Source: Candidatus Micrarchaeota archaeon (GTDB taxonomy: Archaea; Micrarchaeota; Micrarchaeia; Burarchaeales; JACRGF01). From it: 64,000 nucleotides of DNA. The stretch covers positions 10,759-74,758 of the forward strand of contig JACRGF010000048.1 of assembly GCA_016212395.1 (NCBI GenBank). Direction: 5' to 3'. Shown in pieces: positions 16,363 through 59,603 of this stretch (its first letter is position 1; each line of letters begins with the position of its first letter). The notes below the pieces were generated by a model. That model had not been told where the DNA came from, did no database searches, and worked only from the letters and a program-made list of their open reading frames with translations. The position numbers were made by a program, and so were the translations under genes.

Positions 16363-16508
16363 GTCGACACAGTCGACTGCGGTCGACTTGTCGACATTTC
16401 GACTGCAGTCGAAATCGTCGAATACTCGAGCGACAAAACCGTCGGAGCGGTTTTGTGCTCCACAAGAGCGATGCATCGCTCTTGTCGGACAAGTCAGCGT
16501 AGACTTGT
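16363..16508 (+). repeat. cluster of six short perfect hairpins (GTCGAC type and ACAA...TTGT type)
   Basis: GTCGAC-ACA-GTCGAC; ATTTCGACTGCAGTCGAAAT; ACAAAACCG/CGGTTTTGT; ACAAGAGCGATGCATCGCTCTTGT; ACAAGTC/GACTTGT. Confidence 0.7.
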
Positions 16509-16524
16509 CGATGCTAAAATTAAT

Positions 16525-16640
16525 GCGGCTGTAGTCTAGCCTGGTAGGACTCGAGGTTGCCAATCTCGTAACCCGGGTTCAAACACCCGTCGCTGAAGCA
16601 ACGCGCTTTCAGCAACGTGCTGAAAATCCCGGCGGCCGCA
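16525..16640 (+). tRNA. tRNA-Gly(GCC) with ~43-nt intron in the T-loop (exons 16525-16583 and 16627-16640)
   Basis: Hand-folded cloverleaf: acceptor GCGGCUG/CGGCCGC, anticodon loop UUGCCAA, T-stem CCGGG/CCCGG split after UUCAAA; no encoded CCA. Confidence 0.85.
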
Positions 16641-16668
16641 TAACTTCGTGGTTTTCAGTCTTCTGTCT

Positions 16669-16728
16669 CCAACAAGTCAGACGCATCTGACTTGTGGACC
16701 ACAAGTTCGTAACGACGAACTTGTCGGT
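16669..16728 (+). repeat. two tandem CCA(A)CAA...TTGTGG hairpins
   Basis: CCAACAAGTCAGA-CGCA-TCTGACTTGTGG and ACCACAAGTTCGT-AACG-ACGAACTTGTCGGT. Confidence 0.7.
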
Positions 16729-16785
16729 TCAGTTTTGAAAGGCAAAAAAACGGAAAACGCAATACAGAAAACGGAAAACTGAAAA

Positions 16786-16869
16786 TCCCGGCGACCGCAA
16801 TTTTTTTAACGCGGTTGTAGTCTAGCCTGGTAGGACTTTGGCCTTCCAAGCCAATGACCCGGGTTCAAA
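16786..16869 (+). tRNA. tRNA-Gly(UCC), 3'-piece-first gene (circularly permuted or split): nt 60-73 at 16786-16799, 11-nt linker, nt 1-59 at 16811-16869
   Basis: The 5' piece folds to position 59 (anticodon loop CUUCCAA) and then diverges. The upstream UCCCGGCGACCGCA completes the T-stem and acceptor stem, including U5-A68. Confidence 0.75.
16801..16807 (+). terminator. T7 tract immediately after the 3' piece of tRNA-Gly(UCC)
   Basis: GCGACCGCA-A-TTTTTTT; oligo-T is the archaeal termination signal. Confidence 0.4.
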
Positions 16870-16998
16870 TGACCTTTTTTCTTTCTTTTTCTCTCTGAAA
16901 AAGAAAGAAAAAACCTCAACAACCAACAAAAGCGATGTGTCGCTTTTGCGGTCCACAAATTCGATTCGTCGAATTTGTTGGAAAAAAGAAAGAAAAAA
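16870..16998 (+). repeat. structured intron-like module flanking the 5' piece of tRNA-Gly(UCC)
   Basis: Y-run/R-run hairpin (16875-16913), then two ACAA hairpins, then a polypurine run. Same architecture as intron 18535-18676. Confidence 0.65.
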
Positions 16999-17008
16999 GC
17001 AAAAAAAT

Positions 17009-18208
17009 TTACAGCGTTAAGAAAAAGCCTGTTGCGAACACGTCGCCTAGTCCTACTGTCTGCCGGGGGTTGCCGAGAGTAAAGCTTGGAGTGAATGCTT
17101 TCATGCAATCGAGCTTCTGCTTGTCGAAATCTTGTTCTTTTTCAGCAGAACGCTCGCACGGCTCGCCTGGGGAAAAAGTCCTCAAGTCGCTGAATGAAGC
17201 GAAGCGCGCGTTCGCTGCCTTGAAGCACGCGAGAAGCGAAGCGAAAAACAACGCGTTCTTCAAATCCACTTCGCGCTTGTCTTTGCTCAACGCGAAAGAA
17301 TAATCACTCGAGTGAACTACGATAGTACGCACTTTGTTCAACAGCAGGCGCGCGTCCGAAAACTCGTTGCGAGGCATTCCGTCCAATGCTTTCAAGCACT
17401 GCTTCAACTCCAGTTCGTTCAAGCCCAAGCAATCGCACAACGGCGCGAAAACTTCAAGCACTCTCTTCAAAACACTCAAGTCCTGGAAATCGCCGAGCTC
17501 CAAGTGAACGCGCAAACGAGAGTTTGCCTTCTTCCACCCGGAAACTATTTTCGCCACTTCGTCAACGCGCTTGAAAAACTTCGGGGACAGCAAATGAAAA
17601 CCGCCAATAATCGCCTTGTCTATTTCCCCAATGCAAGCTGAAGCGTGCTTCAAGAAAACATCGTCAACACGCAGCTCAAACGCGCCGGAATCGAAAGAAG
17701 CAATAAAACGATTGGAAACAGGGACAGTCTTTCCTCGGACTAACGCGCCTTTTGAATACTCTAAAATAAAGTGAGTAGCACTCTCGCCCAAGGGAGCCAG
17801 CCTGCGCGCAGACGCAAACCCGTTCTCTCCTGCAAGCAAAAGCTTGTCGTCCAACACGCTCAACTGAGTCTTGCCCTTGTCCGCAACATGCAGGAAACTC
17901 TCAACGCCAAGCCTGCAAGCAGCACTCGCGGAAATGCCAGCCTGCCCGCCAACCTGCAGAGAATCAAAGCCAACGCGAGAACGAAGAAAATCAAGGGAAG
18001 ACTCTGAAACTGCAACCTCGCGCTCAACACCCTTCACCATGCACTCCTCCAAGCAAGACAACTCGCCGGGCAAACCGCGAAAATCAATGCCTCGAGCATC
18101 AATCGTCCTCACAGCATCAACATTAGTGTTAAAAGCAAACAACGCCCTCCTCGCAACACGCGCGCTCGCCCAATCAACCAAATCAACCAAACGACAACAC
18201 CCCTGCAA
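17009..18208 (-). CDS. ADP-dependent sugar kinase family protein (glucokinase/phosphofructokinase-like)
   Basis: FAFNTNVDAV, GGQAGISA and C-terminal TVGLGDVFATGF motifs. Start is uncertain: no in-frame ATG upstream of the conserved N-terminal motif FAFNTNVDAV, TTG about 18208. The upstream part of the 444-aa ORF is probably not coding. Confidence 0.65.
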   Translation of the reverse strand: MQGCCRLVDLVDWASARVARRALFAFNTNVDAVRTIDARGIDFRGLPGELSCLEECMVKGVEREVAVSESSLDFLRSRVGFDSLQVGGQAGISASAACRLGVESFLHVADKGKTQLSVLDDKLLLAGENGFASARRLAPLGESATHFILEYSKGALVRGKTVPVSNRFIASFDSGAFELRVDDVFLKHASACIGEIDKAIIGGFHLLSPKFFKRVDEVAKIVSGWKKANSRLRVHLELGDFQDLSVLKRVLEVFAPLCDCLGLNELELKQCLKALDGMPRNEFSDARLLLNKVRTIVVHSSDYSFALSKDKREVDLKNALFFASLLACFKAANARFASFSDLRTFSPGEPCERSAEKEQDFDKQKLDCMKAFTPSFTLGNPRQTVGLGDVFATGFFLTL

Positions 18209-18294
18209 AACAACAACAGAAACAAAACAATTCAAAACCAAAAAATAAAAACCCCTTAAACAAGACCACCACGAACAAAACCGCAGAAACAAAA

Positions 18295-18336
18295 CCCCAA
18301 AACTCAAAACTCCAAAACTCCTAAACTTCCAAACCC
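18295..18336 (-). repeat. tandem 8-nt GTTTTGRA-type array
   Basis: CCCCAAAACTCAAAACTCCAAAACTCCTAAACTTCCAAACCC. Confidence 0.7.
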
Positions 18337-18430
18337 ACTGCAATTATTACATTCTCAAACAACAAACAATACGAACAATAAAGAATATAAAAATGAGAAA
18401 CACAAAAATAAAAACAGAAACAACTGAAAA

Positions 18431-18720
18431 TCCCGGCGACCGCATGATTTTTTTGTGGTTCTCGGTTTTGAGTCAACAGTTTTGGAAACCCCAAAACTGA
18501 AAACTCGAAACTCGACACTGCGGTTGTAGTCTAGTAACCTTTCTTTTTTCTTTTTCGAGTAGAAAAAGAAAAAAGAAACGTTAACGACCAACAAAAGCGA
18601 CGCATCGCTTTTGTGGTCCACAAAAACGTCACGACGTTTTTGTTGGAAAGAAAAAAGAAAAAGAAAGGTTGGACATCTTGGTAGGACATGGGCTTCCCAA
18701 GCCTATAACCCGGGTTCAAA
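18431..18720 (+). tRNA. tRNA-Gly(CCC), 3'-piece-first gene with an extra D-loop intron: nt 60-73 at 18431-18444; nt 1-15 at 18520-18534; intron 18535-18676; nt 16-59 at 18677-18720
   Basis: Pieces sum to 59+14 nt; anticodon loop UUCCCAA; acceptor GCGGUUG/CGACCGC; the D-loop intron forms a BHB (GUCU/GGAC helix flanked by AG|U and AU|C bulges). Confidence 0.75.
18448..18454 (+). terminator. T7 tract immediately after the 3' piece of tRNA-Gly(CCC)
   Basis: GCGACCGCA-TGA-TTTTTTT. Confidence 0.4.
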
Positions 18721-18722
18721 AT

Positions 18723-18770
18723 AAAGTTTTTTCTTTCTTTTCGGCGATCCGAAAAGAAAGAAAAAACTTT
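18723..18770 (+). repeat. perfect 22-bp polypyrimidine/polypurine hairpin directly after the 5' piece of tRNA-Gly(CCC)
   Basis: AAAGTTTTTTCTTTCTTTTCGG-CGAT-CCGAAAAGAAAGAAAAAACTTT. Confidence 0.8.
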
Positions 18771-18894
18771 AATGAAAAAAGAAAGAAAAGAAGAACGAGA
18801 AAAGAAAAAGAGGTACTAAAAGAAAGAAAAGAAAAAAGAAAGAAAAAAAGAAACGCTGAAAAAAAGAAAAAAGAATTAGGAACTGCTTGTTTTT

Positions 18895-22795: not shown

Positions 22796-22958
22796 CCAAC
22801 AGGGGTTTAAAAAGGGAAAAAAAGGAGAGGAAAAACAAACTGAAGGAAAAAGAAAAAAAAACAACGAGTGGAATTCAGAAAAAGAAAGAAAAAAACGAAT
22901 GAGAAAAGAATAGAAAAATTAGAAAAAAAAGAAAGGAAAAAAAGAGGGAATTGCAAGG

Positions 22959-53849: not shown

Positions 53850-53917
53850 TTACTTATTTACAGTAACGAAACAAAACCTGAAAACAGAAAACTGGAAACT
53901 GAAAACATTATAATCAC

Positions 53918-54274
53918 GCCGGGGTGGCAGAACCTGGTTAATGCGTACGCCTGGAATTAACCTTTTTTTCTTTCTTTTCTAGGAGAAAAGAAAGAAAAAA
54001 ACGTTAACGAAAAAAGAAAGAAAATGTAAAGAAACGTTAACGAAAAAAGAAAGAAAAACGAATGAAAAAAGAAAAGAAAACAACAGTAGTATTCATCAAA
54101 AAAAGAAGTGATTTCTTTTTTGGAATCTGGAGAGCGTATGGCTCTAACGGGCCGCATGGGTTCAAAAGGAGTTTTGAAGTTTAGAAGTTTTGAAGTTTCG
54201 TGTAGATGTTTTTAAGGGAATGCGAAACTCCAAAACCCGAAACTTCGAAGCCCGTGAGAATCCCATCCCCGGCG
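53918..54274 (+). tRNA. tRNA-Ser(GGA) with two introns: anticodon-loop intron about 53957-54132 and T-loop intron 54167-54260
   Basis: Acceptor GCCGGGG/CCCCGGC, discriminator G, anticodon stem UACGC/GCGUA with CUGGA in the loop, long variable arm GGCUC/GGGCC, T-stem AUGGG/CCCAU; exons sum to about 87 nt. Confidence 0.8.
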
Positions 54275-54288
54275 TTGAAAATTAGCGT

Positions 54289-54918
54289 TTGAAAAAAATT
54301 GGTGATTTGTTGAGCAGTGTGAAACCTGGCAAGAAAAAGAGTGATGAGAAAGGCGCGCCTGAAGTGCGCAAGCCTGAAGCTAAAGTTGATTATGGGAAAG
54401 CAGTATTGTCTCCTCGAGGAAAGGAAATAAGGGGTATCGTTAGGATTGCCGGCAAAGACGTGAAAGGAGAAGTTTCTTTGCGCAGGGCGGTTATCGAGGT
54501 AAAGGGAGTCGGGGAGAGGTATGGACGGATAATTTTTGACGCTGCGTGCAGCAAAATGGGTTTTCCTTTGGACTGCATGGTCGGCGAATTGTCTGAAGAC
54601 GAGCTGGACAGGCTCGAAGAGATTATGAAGAATCCTGCGAGCGTTGGAATCCCGTCGTTTTTGATGAACAGGCGCAAGGATGTTGACACGGGGCAGGATA
54701 AGCAGTTGATTGCAACTGATTTAGTGTTTCAAAACAAGCAGGATGTTGAACGGGAAAAAGGAATGAGCTCGTGGAGAGGCTACAGACACGTGTACGGAAA
54801 GAAAGTACGCGGCCAGCGCACGAGGACTACGGGAAGAAAGGGAATGAGCGTTGGAGTGTTGAGGAAATCCCTTGTTGCAAAGCCCGGTGCAGCTCCTGCG
54901 AAAGAGGAAAAGAAATAA
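54289..54918 (+). CDS. rps13: ribosomal protein uS13 with N-terminal extension
   Basis: IVRIAGKDVKGEVSLRRAVIEVKGVG; TTG start, no ATG before the conserved core. Confidence 0.9.
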   Translation: MKKIGDLLSSVKPGKKKSDEKGAPEVRKPEAKVDYGKAVLSPRGKEIRGIVRIAGKDVKGEVSLRRAVIEVKGVGERYGRIIFDAACSKMGFPLDCMVGELSEDELDRLEEIMKNPASVGIPSFLMNRRKDVDTGQDKQLIATDLVFQNKQDVEREKGMSSWRGYRHVYGKKVRGQRTRTTGRKGMSVGVLRKSLVAKPGAAPAKEEKK

Positions 54919-54946
54919 CAAGAAAGTTTTTTTCAAGGTGGTTTGA

Positions 54947-55537
54947 TTGGGAGATCCTAAGAAGAACAAGAAAAAATACGAGTCTCCGAGGAAAGTTTGG
55001 GACTTGACGCGCATAGTTAAGGAACAAGGCTTGCTTGAAGAGTACGGCTTGAGAAGCATGCGTGAATTGTGGGCTGTAGAGCAGGAACTCAAGAAGATTA
55101 GGAGGGAAGCGCGGAGATTGCTGCCTTTGGGTGAACGCGGTGAGACTGAATCGAGAAAGCTGCTCACGAGGACAGCACGCTTGGGCTTGACTGCGGAAAG
55201 CGCGACGCTCGACGACTTGCTTTCCTTGAAAGTTCAAGACTTGCTGGACAGGCGGCTCGAGTCGCAAGTGTTCAAGCGCGGGCTTGCGAAATCAATGAAG
55301 CAAAGCAGGCAGATTATAGTTCACGGGTTTGTTGCAGTGAACGGAAAGCGAATATGCGCGCCGAATTATATAGTGCCGGTCTCTGAAGAAAAAGCGATTT
55401 CTTACTACAAGCCGATAAACTTGAACCCTGAGCCTTTGACTGTCCCGACGAGGAAAAGCAGGGAGGTTGAAGGCAAGATAGAGGAAACACCAGCAAGCGG
55501 AGAAGGGGAAACGCCGTCTGCTGAAGCAGCGAGTTAA
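54947..55537 (+). CDS. rps4: ribosomal protein uS4
   Basis: TTG start behind AAGGTGGT. Confidence 0.95.
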   Translation: MGDPKKNKKKYESPRKVWDLTRIVKEQGLLEEYGLRSMRELWAVEQELKKIRREARRLLPLGERGETESRKLLTRTARLGLTAESATLDDLLSLKVQDLLDRRLESQVFKRGLAKSMKQSRQIIVHGFVAVNGKRICAPNYIVPVSEEKAISYYKPINLNPEPLTVPTRKSREVEGKIEETPASGEGETPSAEAAS

Positions 55538-55552
55538 GTTAGGTGATATTTG

Positions 55553-56107
55553 ATGAGTGAAGAAAAAACTGAAGTGAAAAAAGAAGCAGTGCAAGCAAAG
55601 GAAGCAACGCAAGTTCAGGAAGTCAAAAAAGAAACAGCACAGCCTCAACTGCAGGAAATCAAGAAGGATGGAGTGCAAGCGCCTGTCCAGGCAGGAGCGC
55701 AGCCTGTTCCAATGATAAGAAGGCCGAAAAAATCCGCGTTGGCGAACGTCTACTCTTCGAAGAACAACACGATTATAACAATAACAGACTTGAGCGGTGC
55801 TGAAACTATAGCGAAATGCAGTGGCGGAGTGATAGTAAAGTCTGACAGGGAGGAAGGCTCGCCGTACGCGGCAATGCAGGCAGCGTTCAAAGCAGCAGAC
55901 TTGGCGAAAGAGAGAGGGATTACTCACATTCGAATAAAAATACGCGCGCCTGGAGGCCACGGCGCGAAAACTCCCGGAGCAGGAGCGCAGGCAGTAGTAA
56001 GGGCGCTCGCGCGTTCAGGGCTGAGGATAGAAAAAATAGAGGACGTTACTCCGATTCCAACAGACACGACGAAAAGGCCTGGCGGAAGGAGAGGCAGGAG
56101 AGTGTAG
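55553..56107 (+). CDS. rps11: ribosomal protein uS11 with about 55-aa N-terminal extension
   Basis: Sequence and position. Confidence 0.95.
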
Positions 56108-56206
56108 AAAATTGTTTTGAATGGTTCTGAATGGTTTCGAGTTGTTTTGGAGGTTGTTCAAAACAAGTCAAGGCCAGTCAAAACAAATCAAAACCAATAA
56201 AAGGGT
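56108..56206. repeat. 8-nt array followed by its inverted copy, upstream of rpoD
   Basis: TTGTTTTGAATGGTTCTGAATGGTTTCGAGTTGTTTTGGAGGTTGTTCAAAACAAGTCAAGGCCAGTCAAAACAAATCAAAACC. Confidence 0.65.
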
Positions 56207-56218
56207 TTGGTGGAGTTT

Positions 56219-56791
56219 ATGAAAGTTGAAACGATAAAGTCTTCTGAAGAAGAATTGGAGTTAGTGATTTCAGGGGTTGCTTGCTCGTTCGCGAACGCGT
56301 TGAGGCGCGTGGGAATGTCCCAAGTACCGGTATTTGCCGTAGACTCGATTACAGTCTATGAAAACTCGTCAGCATTTTTCGACGAGTATATTGCGAACAG
56401 GCTCGCACTCGTTCCGCTGAGGACAGAGGAAGGCTACAAGGAAGGCGAAGAAATAATTCTCATGCTTGACGCGGTAGGCCCGTGCACAGTGTACTCGAAG
56501 GACTTGCGAAGCACAGACGGGAAGATAACTCCTGCGAGAGAAAAAATTCCGTTGCTGAAGCTCGGGCAAGGGCAGAACGTGAGGCTCGAGGCAAAAGCAA
56601 AACTCGGCATTGGAAGGGAACACGCGAAATTTCAAGCGTCGAACATAATGTACAATTACGACGAGAAGAAAGACGAGTACGCGTTCAAAATAGAGTCGTT
56701 CGGCCAAATGGCTGCGAGAGAAGTGCTCAAGCAGGCAGTGAAAGTGATAAACGAAAAATGCAAGGAACTTGAAAAGCAAATGAAAAAGTAA
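56219..56791 (+). CDS. rpoD: DNA-directed RNA polymerase subunit D (Rpo3), short form
   Basis: SFANALRRVGMSQVPVFAVD; no Cys cluster domain. Confidence 0.9.
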   Translation: MKVETIKSSEEELELVISGVACSFANALRRVGMSQVPVFAVDSITVYENSSAFFDEYIANRLALVPLRTEEGYKEGEEIILMLDAVGPCTVYSKDLRSTDGKITPAREKIPLLKLGQGQNVRLEAKAKLGIGREHAKFQASNIMYNYDEKKDEYAFKIESFGQMAAREVLKQAVKVINEKCKELEKQMKK

Positions 56792-56855
56792 AAGCACTCG
56801 CAGAACGGTTTTCACACTGCTGAAAACTGGAAACAGAAAACCGAAAACGTTTGCT

Positions 56856-56994
56856 GCGGGGGTGTCAGAGCTAGGTCAAATGAGCAGGACTGAGGCTCCT
56901 GTGCCTTTAGTGGCTGCGCGAGTTCAAATCTTCGCAAACTCCGCTTGCGATTTTTAAACGGAGTGAAGCGGAGTTGAAAATCTCGTCCCCCGCA
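56856..56994 (+). tRNA. tRNA-Leu(GAG) with ~52-nt T-loop intron (about 56929-56980)
   Basis: Acceptor GCGGGGG/CCCCCGC, A73, anticodon loop CUGAGGC, long variable arm, T-stem GCGAG/CUCGU split after UUCAAA. Confidence 0.85.
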
Positions 56995-57005
56995 TTAGTG
57001 TTTTT

Positions 57006-57061
57006 GGTTTAGAAGTTTTGGAGTTTTGTAGTTTAGAGGTTTGGAAGTTTTGGAATTTGGG
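57006..57061 (+). repeat. seven exact-phase tandem octamers
   Basis: GGTTTAGA AGTTTTGG AGTTTTGT AGTTTAGA GGTTTGGA AGTTTTGG AATTTGGG. Confidence 0.85.
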
Positions 57062-57094
57062 AATTGTTTGTTCAAATGAAAAAGGTGTGGTGGT

Positions 57095-57454
57095 ATGAAG
57101 AAAGGTCCGGAAAATCAGGTAGTAAAGAAAATTGCGAGAGAACTGGAAAAAGCGTCTTCGAAGAACGATGTCGCCATATGGCGCAGCGTGTCTGAAAGGA
57201 TATGCAAGCCAGCTCGGCTTTCCGTGGGCGTGAACGTTGGAAAGATAAACGATTTGACGAAGAAGGGCGAGGTAGTGCTCGTTCCTGGGAAAGTTCTCGG
57301 CACTGGCGTGCTTGACCACGCGGTGAGCGTTGCTGCGTTAAAGTTTTCGGAAAGCGCGAAAGGCAAAATTGCTTCTGCGGGTGGAAAGTGCTTGGGCTTG
57401 CTTGAATTAGTGAACAGCAACCCGAAGGGAAGCGGGGTCAGGGTATTGTGTTGA
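57095..57454 (+). CDS. rpl18e: ribosomal protein eL18
   Basis: Sequence and position. Confidence 0.9.
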   Translation: MKKGPENQVVKKIARELEKASSKNDVAIWRSVSERICKPARLSVGVNVGKINDLTKKGEVVLVPGKVLGTGVLDHAVSVAALKFSESAKGKIASAGGKCLGLLELVNSNPKGSGVRVLC

Positions 57455-57478
57455 ACAAGTTGAGAGAGGTTGTTTGAA

Positions 57479-57907
57479 ATGGTTGTAATAGATGGAAAGG
57501 ATTTAGTGTTGGGGCGCGTTGCTTCAAAGGTTGCGAAAACGCTTTTGAACGGAGAGGACGTGGCGCTCGTGAATGCCGAGAAACTTGTTATTTCGGGAAG
57601 CCCGAAAGCGACTACTGAAAAGTATTTGACGCGCAGGAGGCTGAAGGACAAAGCGAACCCAGAGCATTCGCCGCACTGGCCGAGGAGGCCGGACTTGCTC
57701 GTGCGCAGGATTATCAGGGGAATGCTTCCATTCAAGAAAGCGCGAGGCAGGGAAGCGTTCAAAAAACTCAGAGTGTACGCCGGAGTTCCGAAAGAGCTTG
57801 AAGCTGCGGAGAAGCTGAGTTTTGTTGAAATGAACAAGGGCAAGTTGAACGTTGAGTTTACGGACGTGCAGAAATTGTGCGAGAGGCTCGGCCTCGAACA
57901 AGGGTGA
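57479..57907 (+). CDS. rpl13: ribosomal protein uL13
   Basis: Sequence and position. Confidence 0.95.
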   Translation: MVVIDGKDLVLGRVASKVAKTLLNGEDVALVNAEKLVISGSPKATTEKYLTRRRLKDKANPEHSPHWPRRPDLLVRRIIRGMLPFKKARGREAFKKLRVYAGVPKELEAAEKLSFVEMNKGKLNVEFTDVQKLCERLGLEQG

Positions 57908-57913
57908 AAATAA

Positions 57914-58378
57914 ATGGCTACTAGAAAAAAAACAGCTGCGGCAACAGGAGGCGCCAAGCCTGCTGCGAAAAAAAAGGACAAGTCTGTGGTTACTAGGGGA
58001 AAGAGAAAGGAAAGCATTGCGCGTGCAGTAGCACGCGAGGGGAAAGGAGTAGTGAGGATAAACCGTTTCAAGTTAAACGCTTTGGATCATTCCTATTTTC
58101 AAGAGATAGTGAACGAACCGCTTGAAGTAGCTGGAGAAGCGATTACGTCGAAAATAGACATTGACGTGAGCGTGCACGGCGGCGGGAGAATGAGCCAGGC
58201 TGAAGCAGCCAGGACTGCGATAGCACGCGCGATAATCGCGCACAATGGAACTGAAGAACTCAAAAACAAGATGCTCGAGCATGACAGGTTTTTGTTAAGG
58301 GAAGACGTGCGGAGAGTCGAGCCTAAAAAGTACAAGGGGCCGAAAGCACGCGCGAGATTCCAAAAATCATACAGATAA
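57914..58378 (+). CDS. rps9: ribosomal protein uS9
   Basis: C-terminal ...ARFQKSYR. Confidence 0.95.
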   Translation: MATRKKTAAATGGAKPAAKKKDKSVVTRGKRKESIARAVAREGKGVVRINRFKLNALDHSYFQEIVNEPLEVAGEAITSKIDIDVSVHGGGRMSQAEAARTAIARAIIAHNGTEELKNKMLEHDRFLLREDVRRVEPKKYKGPKARARFQKSYR

Positions 58379-58399
58379 AAAAAAAAGGGTGATTTGAGA

Positions 58400-58597
58400 A
58401 TGATGCCTCCGATAAGATGCTTTACGTGCGGGAAAGTAATTGGTGACAAGTTCGAGGAATACTCTGAAAAGACAGGCAAAGGCGAGGACGCGGGAAAAGT
58501 TTTGGACGCGGTCGGAGTTTCCAAGTATTGTTGCAGGAGAATGTTTGTTGGCCACGTGGACGTAGTGGATGAAACGATTAGGTACGGAAGGTTTTAA
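58400..58597 (+). CDS. rpoN: RNA polymerase subunit N (Rpo10)
   Basis: MMPPIRCFTCGKVIG...KYCCRRM. Confidence 0.9.
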   Translation: MMPPIRCFTCGKVIGDKFEEYSEKTGKGEDAGKVLDAVGVSKYCCRRMFVGHVDVVDETIRYGRF

Positions 58598-58608
58598 GGA
58601 AAAAGATT

Positions 58609-58729
58609 GGGGCCGTGTGCTAGCTTGGTATGCTTCCAGCTTGGGGTGCTGGCGACTCGAGTTCAAAAGAGCCCGGTCTTCAAAGCTTGGAATGGAAGGC
58701 TGGCGGCGCTGAATTTCTCGACGGCCCCA
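58609..58729 (+). tRNA. tRNA-Pro(GGG) with ~48-nt T-loop intron (about 58668-58715)
   Basis: Acceptor GGGGCCG/CGGCCCC, anticodon loop UUGGGGU, T-stem UCGAG/CUCGA; D-stem weak (U.U, G-C, C-G, U.U). Confidence 0.75.
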
Positions 58730-58817
58730 TTAGTGGTTTTGCAATTGTTTCGCAGTGGTTCTGAATGGTTTTGCCTCAGTAGTTTAGAAGTTTCGCAGTT
58801 TTGAAGTTTTGGAGTTT
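58730..58817 (+). repeat. tandem 8-nt array upstream of uS2
   Basis: ...AGTTTAGAAGTTTCGCAGTTTTGAAGTTTTGGAGTTT-ATG. Confidence 0.7.
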
Positions 58818-59603
58818 ATGAGTTTTGAGAGGGTTGATACGATGGAGGAAATGCTTGTACCGCAGGAAAAATACTTGGAAGCAGGAATACACATTGGAAC
58901 AAAGCTGAAAACGTCTGACATGATACAGTATATTTACAAGGCACGCCAGGACAAATTGTACGTGCTTGACTTGAAGAAAACTGACGAGAAAATAAGGCTT
59001 GCGGCGAGGTTTATTTCGCGTTACAAGCCTGAAGACGTGCTCATTGTCGCGTCTAGAACGTACGCAAGCAACGCGAGCAAAACGTTCTGCAAGACTACGA
59101 GTTGCAGGCAGCTGGCAGGAAGATTCGTGCCAGGCATTCTGACAAACCCGGCGAGGGAAAGCTTCATAGAGCCGAAGCTAGTGATAGTTTCAGACCCGAA
59201 GGGAGAACGGCAGGCGATAAGGGAAGCCGCAAAGTCAGGCATTCCGGTAATCGCGTTGTGCGACACGGACAACACGACGAAGTTCATTGACTTGATAGTG
59301 CCGTGCAACAACAAAGGCAAAAAATCTTTAGCGCTCGTTTTCTACCTGCTCGCGCGCGAAGTGCTTAAAGCAAAGGGAGAAATACAAACAGACGCAGAGT
59401 TTAAGACAAGCCTTGCGGAATTCGAGGAAGACGTTATTCTCGAAGAAGAAAACGCCGAACCTGCTGTTGATGCGGTAGAGGATTCTGCTCCGGCAGAAGC
59501 TGTTGCTGAACAACCGGCTGAAGAGCAGGAAGCGAAAAAACCGCGCAAGAAAAAGAAGGAAAAGAAAGAAGGCGAATCTGCTGAAGAAGCACCAGCACAG
59601 TAA
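58818..59603 (+). CDS. rps2: ribosomal protein uS2 with acidic/K-rich C-terminal tail
   Basis: [16 protein letters not shown]; start uncertain (58809 TTG, 58818 or 58842 ATG). Confidence 0.9.

Follow-up and report, generated by a model that had tools for sequence, protein, structure and literature searches.

The stretch of DNA analysed here (the window) is 64 kb of contig JACRGF010000048.1, from a metagenome-assembled genome (MAG) of a Candidatus Micrarchaeota archaeon, and carries six tRNA genes, all on the + strand: tRNA-Gly(GCC), tRNA-Gly(UCC), tRNA-Gly(CCC), tRNA-Ser(GGA), tRNA-Leu(GAG) and tRNA-Pro(GGG). The body of each gene ends at GUUCAAA, with A59, where the match to a tRNA stops, and the 14-nt piece from U60 to the discriminator base begins elsewhere, at 16627, 16786, 18431, 54261, 56981 and 58716, respectively. 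We consider it likely that these are six functional tRNA genes of Micrarchaeota (DPANN) that are disrupted between positions 59 and 60 of the T loop, four of them (Gly-GCC, Ser, Leu and Pro) by bulge-helix-bulge (BHB) introns in cis of 43-94 nt, and two (Gly-UCC and Gly-CCC) by circular permutation. RpoD and the genes next to it are annotated as Candidatus Micrarchaeota, which places the 93-kb contig in that phylum, and the same genome is carried by runs SRR12113395 and SRR12113407.

When body and 3' piece are joined, all six genes give full-length, perfect cloverleaves with the expected identities (ARAGORN). The 3' pieces are preceded, in gene order, by CTGAAAA, CTGAAAA, CTGAAAA, GTGAGAA, TTGAAAA and CTGAATT; TGA[AG] thus stands at -6 to -3 in six of six genes, and with p=1/128 per site chance is ruled out. 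CCA does not follow any of the 3' pieces and is not encoded. An earlier note on this DNA had given these ends and contexts, and they match the sequence exactly. It had also described all six genes as interrupted by an insert and had located them at 53918-58729. The former holds for Gly-GCC, Ser, Leu and Pro, but Gly-UCC and Gly-CCC are permuted, with the 3' piece upstream; the latter span contains the Ser, Leu and Pro genes, and the three Gly genes lie outside it.

The simplest of the intron-bearing genes is tRNA-Gly(GCC), in which the body (positions 1-59; 16525-16583) and the 3' exon (U60-A73, TCCCGGCGGCCGCA; 16627-16640) are separated by a 43-nt BHB intron (16584-16626) that is supported by both fold and sequence and ends in CUGAAAA; joining gives a 73-nt cloverleaf. 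The tRNA-Leu(GAG) gene has the same layout, with a body at 56856-56928, a 52-nt BHB intron ending in UUGAAAA at 56929-56980 and a 3' exon at 56981-56994, as does tRNA-Pro(GGG), with a body at 58609-58667, a 48-nt BHB intron ending in CUGAAUU at 58668-58715 and a 3' exon at 58716-58729. The body of tRNA-Ser(GGA) (53918-54166) is itself divided into exon 1 (positions 1-37; 53918-53956) and exon 2 (positions 38-59; 54133-54166) by a 176-nt intron at the canonical 37/38 site (53957-54132; central helix CUGG:CUGG), the boundary of which could be shifted by one register, with A or G as position 37, because CUGGA is repeated. A 94-nt BHB intron at 59/60 (54167-54260), ending in GUGAGAA, and the 3' exon (U60-G73; 54261-54274) follow. 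Together with a 142-nt D-loop intron at 15/16 in Gly-CCC, the Ser 37/38 intron speaks against the earlier view that a single site is used uniformly in the window.

The 59/60 junction is a 3-4-3 BHB. Its outer helix is the T stem (49-53:61-65), its 4-bp central helix pairs U54-A57 with the UGA[AG] located 2 nt before the 3' piece, and its bulges, A58 A59|N and N N|U60, are 3 nt each in all six junctions and hold the predicted cut sites. The earlier note had proposed this pairing, with 2 nt plus U60 bulged by the T stem; it is the standard BHB arrangement, and the folds agree. Folds constrained to the BHB lie 0.6-2 kcal/mol from the minimum free energy (MFE) for the four cis 59/60 introns and the Ser 37/38 intron, and the MFE fold itself holds the motif for Gly-GCC and Leu, in Gly-GCC complete with T stem, UUCA:UGAA helix and 3-nt bulge. 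The UGA[AG] context is conserved because its partner, U54-U55-C56-R57, is nearly invariant in tRNAs; the conserved UGA[AG]-NN context is an ordinary BHB and no special signal. Having a 5-bp stem and a 7-nt loop, the T arm offers at 59/60 the counterpart of the canonical 37/38 site.

Permuted tRNA-Gly genes

For the bodies of Gly-UCC and Gly-CCC the only fitting 3' pieces are upstream, TCCCGGCGACCGCA at 16786 and at 18431, separated from the body by 11 and 75 nt, and these genes are therefore circularly permuted and not interrupted by insertions. The order, on one strand, is leader, 3' piece, linker (11 or 75 nt), body and trailer. In tRNA-Gly(UCC) the leader CUGAAAA (16779-16785) provides helix strand H' (UGAA) and the first two bulge nucleotides, with UGAA paired to U54-A57 in the unconstrained MFE fold. 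The 3' piece (U60-A73; 16786-16799) is a perfect acceptor and T-stem complement of the body, and the 11-nt linker ATTTTTTTAAC (16800-16810) runs from A73 to G1. The body (positions 1-59) occupies 16811-16869, and in the trailer (16870-16998) a pyrimidine/purine hairpin (16870-16917) stands directly at the 5' cut site, after which come a double-hairpin module and another purine arm. The alternative 3' partner of this body is 1,561 nt away, beyond a minus-strand ADP-PFK/GK gene (17012-18190).

For tRNA-Gly(CCC), the 3' piece (U60-A73; 18431-18444) again follows CUGAAAA and precedes a 75-nt linker (18445-18519) that starts with a T7 run and contains a hairpin of -26.7 kcal/mol. The body (18520-18720) is made up of positions 1-15 (18520-18534) and positions 16-59 (18677-18720), separated by the 142-nt BHB intron in the D loop (18535-18676), with GUCU:GGAC as central helix and AACCUUUC/GAAAGGUU as inner helix. 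A 23-bp trailer hairpin (18721-18771) begins at +2 past the cut site.

The precursors of Gly-UCC and Gly-CCC, folded without constraint, have an MFE structure with T and acceptor stems, the UGAA:UUCA helix with a 3-nt bulge and, next to the bulge, the trailer hairpin. An inner helix is found in all four cis introns; at the two permuted junctions there is no leader-trailer duplex, and the trailer hairpin stands in its place. Such hairpins in the window clade have 17-23 bp and start 1-2 nt past the 5' cut site, and we propose that at the permuted junctions they would supply the inner helix.

Permuted Gly genes were also found in four related genomes (L082, L083, L209 and L211), giving five with the window. 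L082 has a 3' piece between a complete Gly-GCC gene and the Gly-UCC body, and since that Gly-GCC gene is complete and colinear, the piece has no other partner than Gly-UCC. All three Gly genes of L083 are permuted: no body precedes its first 3' piece and no piece follows its last body, and the Gly-GCC body (GCGGCCG) pairs perfectly with the upstream piece, whereas the downstream piece gives a C6.C67 mismatch. The permuted Gly-CCC of L209 carries a compensatory A7:U66 pair. In the distant L211 (GCA_038890815.1; ADP-PFK 40% and RpoD 53% identical) the permuted Gly-UCC has a 51-nt linker with no T run, and its leader CCGCACCGG pairs with the trailer UCGGUGCGG in a 9-bp helix, so that the unconstrained MFE fold shows a strict hBHBh' motif.

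Upstream piece and downstream body form an acceptor helix that is 100% paired in each of the eight permuted genes (8/8); in three of its seven pairs both partners have changed. Linkers in the five genomes measure 11-85 nt and are often T-rich. The tRNA-Gly(GCC) orthologue is colinear in L082 (11413-11485), permuted in L083 (11472-11619) and split by a 59/60 intron in the window (16525-16640), and on these sequences the turnover of its architecture is unusually fast among relatives. A metagenome search with the pattern TGAAAATCCCGGNNNNCGCA, which is poorly specific, gave no further permuted genes among the at least 120 matches listed; about 20 of those matches are tRNA-Gly genes with cis 59/60 introns.

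Occurrence of the 59/60 site in Micrarchaeota

A set of 80 Micrarchaeota rpoD loci was scanned with a finder for 59/60 joins, which accepted 415 joins on the real sequences and 2 on the reversed ones. Among these other loci, tRNA-Leu(GAG) after rpoD is colinear in 31 cases and has a 59/60 intron in 10, tRNA-Pro after rpoN is colinear in 6 and has the intron in 19, and all six tRNA-Ala(GGC) genes have it (none colinear); the 18 genes for Gln, Met, Asn, Glu, Lys and Arg are all colinear, with no 59/60 intron. The occurrence of tRNA-Leu(GAG) after rpoD and of tRNA-Pro after rpoN in dozens of Micrarchaeota loci bears out the earlier suggestion that the host genes are ancestral at these operon positions. 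At eight loci (L038, L043, L044, L049, L057, L063, L074 and L081) the GGG gene after rpoN is replaced by a tRNA-Pro with anticodon AGG (A34), a form that is common in Micrarchaeota and usually has a short 59/60 intron; ARMAN-4 and ARMAN-5 were earlier reported to have Pro and Leu tRNAs with A34 (PMC3239211).

Of the 37 introns at 59/60 in other Micrarchaeota, 16 have UGAA and 35 have AA as bulge dinucleotide, and relaxed contexts such as CCAAAAA and CAGAAAA occur among relatives. The T arm is also interrupted at 53/54 and apparently at 56/57 and 58/59, and the Gly-GCC gene of L213 has an intron at 15/16, as does Gly-CCC of the window. In GCA_053535415.1 (RpoD 67% identical) all six orthologues are disrupted at 59/60; its Ser, Leu and Pro genes are cut there with introns of different length and sequence, and a 53/54 plus 59/60 double intron is present in Pro (GCA_053535415.1/L085), as in ARMAN-2. 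The closer organism of run SRR22387921 (RpoD 89% identical) has a 145-nt 59/60 intron in Ser that is unrelated to the 94-nt one of the window, and its Gly-GCC is fully uninterrupted (L082, an 80%-identity relative). The site is a phylum-wide hotspot, neither private to this lineage nor the only one used, and the lineage-wide fixation that the earlier note had inferred is not borne out, given the colinear Gly-GCC of the close relative L082 and the mixed states over the 80 loci.

Insert families are shared across sites and tRNAs, and gene states differ between close relatives. On these grounds the data suggest that introns have been gained and replaced repeatedly at a hotspot whose structure permits it.

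Interpretation and comparison with known systems

Processing of these transcripts would follow the published algal and archaeal model (PMC3978253). A splicing endonuclease, probably of the broad-specificity epsilon2 type of Micrarchaeota, would cut both bulges, and an RtcB-type ligase would join A59 to U60, which for the permuted genes would give a circle that keeps the linker. RNase P and tRNase Z would then open the circle at the acceptor ends and so remove the linker, and CCA would be added afterwards.

Several points weigh against the interpretation of all six as functional genes with four cis introns and two permutations. The tRNA sample from this genome is small, six genes in 64 kb. Leader-trailer complementarity at the permuted junctions of the window equals that of shuffled sequence (z about 0), and the motif there must therefore be called relaxed. 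A T6-T8 run stands right after each permuted 3' piece in the window clade, and no convincing promoter could be placed, by eye, for either a permuted or a split reading. The window has no genes for the endonuclease, ligase, RNase P or tRNase Z (Pfam scans of 20 open reading frames found no splicing endonuclease), and for this reason the endonuclease type is extrapolated from ARMAN-2. What is said here of mature tRNAs, of circular intermediates and of cut sites is prediction.

The T runs would also fit adjacent split genes, in which the 3' piece of Gly-UCC and Gly-CCC ends at T6-T8 and is trans-spliced at a 59/60 BHB to a separately transcribed body. They are found directly after the permuted pieces in the window, L082, L083 and L209, and likewise after the colinear Gly-GCC of L082, and trans-spliced tRNAs are known in archaea (PMC3218864). 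We nevertheless think this rather unlikely: linkers of 11-20 nt are too short for a promoter of their own, the leader-trailer complementarity typical of split tRNAs was not found in the window, and L211 has a strict cis BHB and a linker free of T runs. In addition, because T6-T7 runs are present within introns that must be transcribed (at 53963 and 54116 in Ser and 18544 in Gly-CCC), the T7 run of the linker need not terminate transcription; in the ribosomal-protein region (35933-59603) sense-strand T6 runs are about as frequent as base composition predicts. The split tRNAs of Nanoarchaeum equitans and the Desulfurococcales are likewise joined through a BHB from separately encoded pieces, but those halves have distant loci, their own promoters and long complementary leaders and trailers, whereas the pieces described here are 11-85 nt apart and mostly non-complementary. 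A normal gene order has also to be considered, with the Gly-UCC body spliced over 1,561 nt to 18431 and the 16786 piece and the Gly-CCC body left as orphans or pseudogenes, since the pieces at 16786 and 18431 are identical and cannot be assigned within the window from sequence alone. This would require a 1.56-kb intron holding a conserved antisense ADP-PFK/GK gene and would leave two orphans per genome. It also conflicts with the upstream piece after a complete Gly-GCC in L082, the bodiless first piece and the C6.C67 mismatch in L083, and the strict BHB of L211, which forms only in the permuted pairing. On account of the antisense gene and the relatives the 1.56-kb intron is rejected, and the normal order is very improbable.

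The earlier note had suggested a lineage-specific fixation of the single site and a dedicated mode of recognition by the endonuclease, with protection against integrating elements or a processing checkpoint as possible, speculative roles; UGA[AG]-NN|U would then be a dedicated signal for a specialised endonuclease, and its fixation adaptive. The use of 59/60 in six of six window genes and in six of six orthologues of GCA_053535415.1, and an AA bulge in nearly all introns of relatives, beyond what base pairing needs, would be consistent with such a signal. Against it stand the facts that UGAA merely complements the invariant UUCA and that relaxed contexts exist, that the same genes also hold 15/16 and 37/38 introns, that Gly-GCC is intact in the close relative L082, and that the epsilon2 enzyme cuts canonical and 59/60 substrates alike (PMC3239211); neither an integrating element nor an att site was seen at the six genes. 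We regard the signal as unlikely, and a dedicated recognition mode is unneeded because 59/60 equals 37/38 structurally and UGAA is the complement of an invariant T loop. For a MAG contig, errors of assembly or binning, or decay into pseudogenes, are a conceivable source of the disruptions, the more so as Logan contigs end inside or beside the inserts (53986, 56927 and 57007). This is extremely improbable, as the Ser and Pro loci are matched at 100% identity by independent Logan assemblies from two runs, the architecture and its compensatory changes recur in genomes of different samples, every spliced product is a perfect cloverleaf, and no intact alternative copies of the six genes occur within the 73 kb scanned. 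We also give only a small chance to a scenario in which the 59/60 junction is a near-universal, obligatory maturation step in this Micrarchaeota clade, the inverted Gly pieces are an undescribed variant, possibly separate transcripts ending at the T run, with a relaxed BHB completed by the trailer hairpin and not by leader-trailer pairing, and mobile, phylum-wide inserts (the pyrimidine/purine hairpin and the double-hairpin module) invade BHB-competent sites again and again and drive interconversion of the gene forms.

The interpretation as four cis introns and two permuted genes has precedents in known systems. Introns at 59/60 were described in tRNA-Cys(GCA) and tRNA-Pro(GGG) of ARMAN-2 (Candidatus Micrarchaeum acidiphilum; Fujishima et al. 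2011, PMC3239211), where that of tRNA-Cys has 13 nt and was cleaved in vitro by the epsilon2 endonuclease (PMC3239211), and the 59/60 intron site in Micrarchaeota is thus already published biology. The two organisms have in common the phylum, the site, the BHB logic in strict and relaxed form and even the tRNA-Pro(GGG) gene; the window differs in that six of six sampled genes are disrupted at 59/60, its introns are longer (43-94 nt, vs 13 nt for ARMAN-2 Cys), and it has two permuted genes, an arrangement that has not been reported for ARMAN.

Permuted tRNA genes joined at 59/60 are known from Thermofilum pendens (PMC3218864). They too have the 3' piece upstream on the same strand, a 59/60 (type IV) BHB junction and, in some genes, extra introns. 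T. pendens, however, belongs to the Crenarchaeota and not to DPANN, its linkers are of 1 and 7 nt as against 11-85 nt, often T-rich, here, and it encodes CCA, which the genes described here do not (PMC3978253). In the window clade, moreover, the junction is relaxed, with a trailer hairpin replacing the leader-trailer helix, and the permutation involves other tRNAs than in T. pendens, a family of Gly isoacceptors that is conserved in five genomes. The permuted nuclear tRNA genes of Cyanidioschyzon merolae (Soma et al. 2007; reviewed in PMC3978253) resemble ours in gene architecture and in having T-loop junctions, and include a tRNA-Gly(CCC) that is both permuted and intron-bearing. They differ as eukaryotic genes of RNA polymerase III with junctions at several positions, and as genes whose pathway (BHB cleavage, a circular intermediate, RNase P and tRNase Z, CCA addition; PMC3978253) is experimentally verified, whereas the pathway above is deduced.

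In the searchable literature, archaeal permuted tRNA genes are confined to two genes of a single crenarchaeon, T. pendens, and we found no report of them in DPANN there, an absence that is no proof. What is new is a conserved permuted tRNA-Gly family in a second, unrelated archaeal phylum, present in five genomes. The family spans strict and relaxed junctions, and one of its genes is colinear, intron-bearing or permuted among close relatives. This series is natural material for studying how permuted genes originate and how a broad-specificity endonuclease co-evolves with its substrates.

Gene detection, related inserts and repeats

Standard tools see little of these genes. ARAGORN reported a single tRNA in the raw window, Gly-GCC at 16524-16599, with a wrong, colinear 3' end and a poorly paired T arm and acceptor end; the same interval scores 28.3 bits with Rfam against a threshold of 29 bits. 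At the gathering threshold Rfam has no match in the window, and partial tRNA matches lie below it. Because the true 3' end of Gly-GCC (16627-16640) follows a 43-nt intron, automatic annotation of this genome is misleading. In a scan for hidden genes, every TTCRAN site was given a synthetic perfect 3' end, and no further credible tRNA body was found in the 64-kb window or in the 9.3 kb past its right edge.

DPANN genomes of this type appear tRNA-poor because standard tools miss nearly all such genes, and this distorts completeness estimates and decoding inferences for such Micrarchaeota; incomplete tRNA sets in DPANN were explicitly remarked upon in a 2018 endonuclease survey. The Logan contig ends at 53986, 56927 and 57007 fall in the repeat of the Ser anticodon intron and around the Leu T-loop intron. 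The inserts are thus assembly breakpoints, and may therefore hide such genes in fragmented MAGs. Searches of the inserts themselves gave only spurious hairpin matches to microRNA models below the Rfam threshold, and no C box of a box C/D small RNA was seen on inspection by eye.

Some inserts at different sites are related. The Gly-CCC D-loop intron (18562-18624) and the Gly-UCC trailer (16897-16959) are 86% identical over 63 nt, and the Gly-CCC trailer (18751-18789) and the Ser anticodon intron (53985-54024) are 92% identical over 40 nt; ATAAGATCC... inserts are common to L083, L085 and L086. These similarities suggest a putative mobile or recurrently copied intron family.

Transposition of tRNA introns has reportedly been described in Thermoproteales by Fujishima and colleagues in 2010, a study cited in PMC4090602 and PMC4033280. 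There, as here, related introns occur at different positions and in different tRNAs. The phylum and the sequence family differ (the latter consisting here of the pyrimidine/purine hairpin and the double-hairpin module), and mobility in the present case is deduced from similarity only.

A common hairpin with a pyrimidine arm and a purine arm, TTTTTTCTTTCTTTTC...GAAAAGAAAGAAAAAA, is present in the Gly-UCC and Gly-CCC trailers, the Gly-CCC D-loop intron and the Ser anticodon intron, and comparable ones are found in the tRNA-Leu introns of distant Micrarchaeota (L002, L009, L016, L017 and L021). The double-hairpin module has the approximate consensus CAACAAAAGCGAYGYRTCGCTTTTG..CCACAAAnnCG..CGnnTTTGTTGG and is found in the window at 16446-16515 and 16668-16727, on either side of Gly-GCC, at 16919-16980, in the Gly-UCC trailer, and at 18590-18647, in the Gly-CCC D-loop intron, as well as in trailers of L083. 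A 135-nt, nearly pure A/G intergenic tract at 22810-22945 is similar to the purine arms seen in the inserts and has no tRNA piece near it.

Repeats of the GAAAAC type form intergenic arrays ahead of tRNA bodies and at the 3' ends of introns, and complementary GTTTTG[GA]AGTTT repeats are located downstream of tRNAs and upstream of protein genes; together the arrays occupy 53860-53905, 56825-56850, 56100-56215, 57000-57075, 58740-58830 and 18250-18340. A role of the GAAAAC and GUUUUG repeats as a leader-trailer processing stem was considered and rejected as a general one, the duplex energies being no better than those of shuffled sequences, save marginally for Leu. In L085 (7690-7790, 10688-10845 and 12760-12875), copies lie on either side of small palindromic inserts (TGAATCGA...TCGATAG) or of a pyrimidine/purine hairpin, and what they enclose may represent additional introns close to the 5' end or footprints of insertion.

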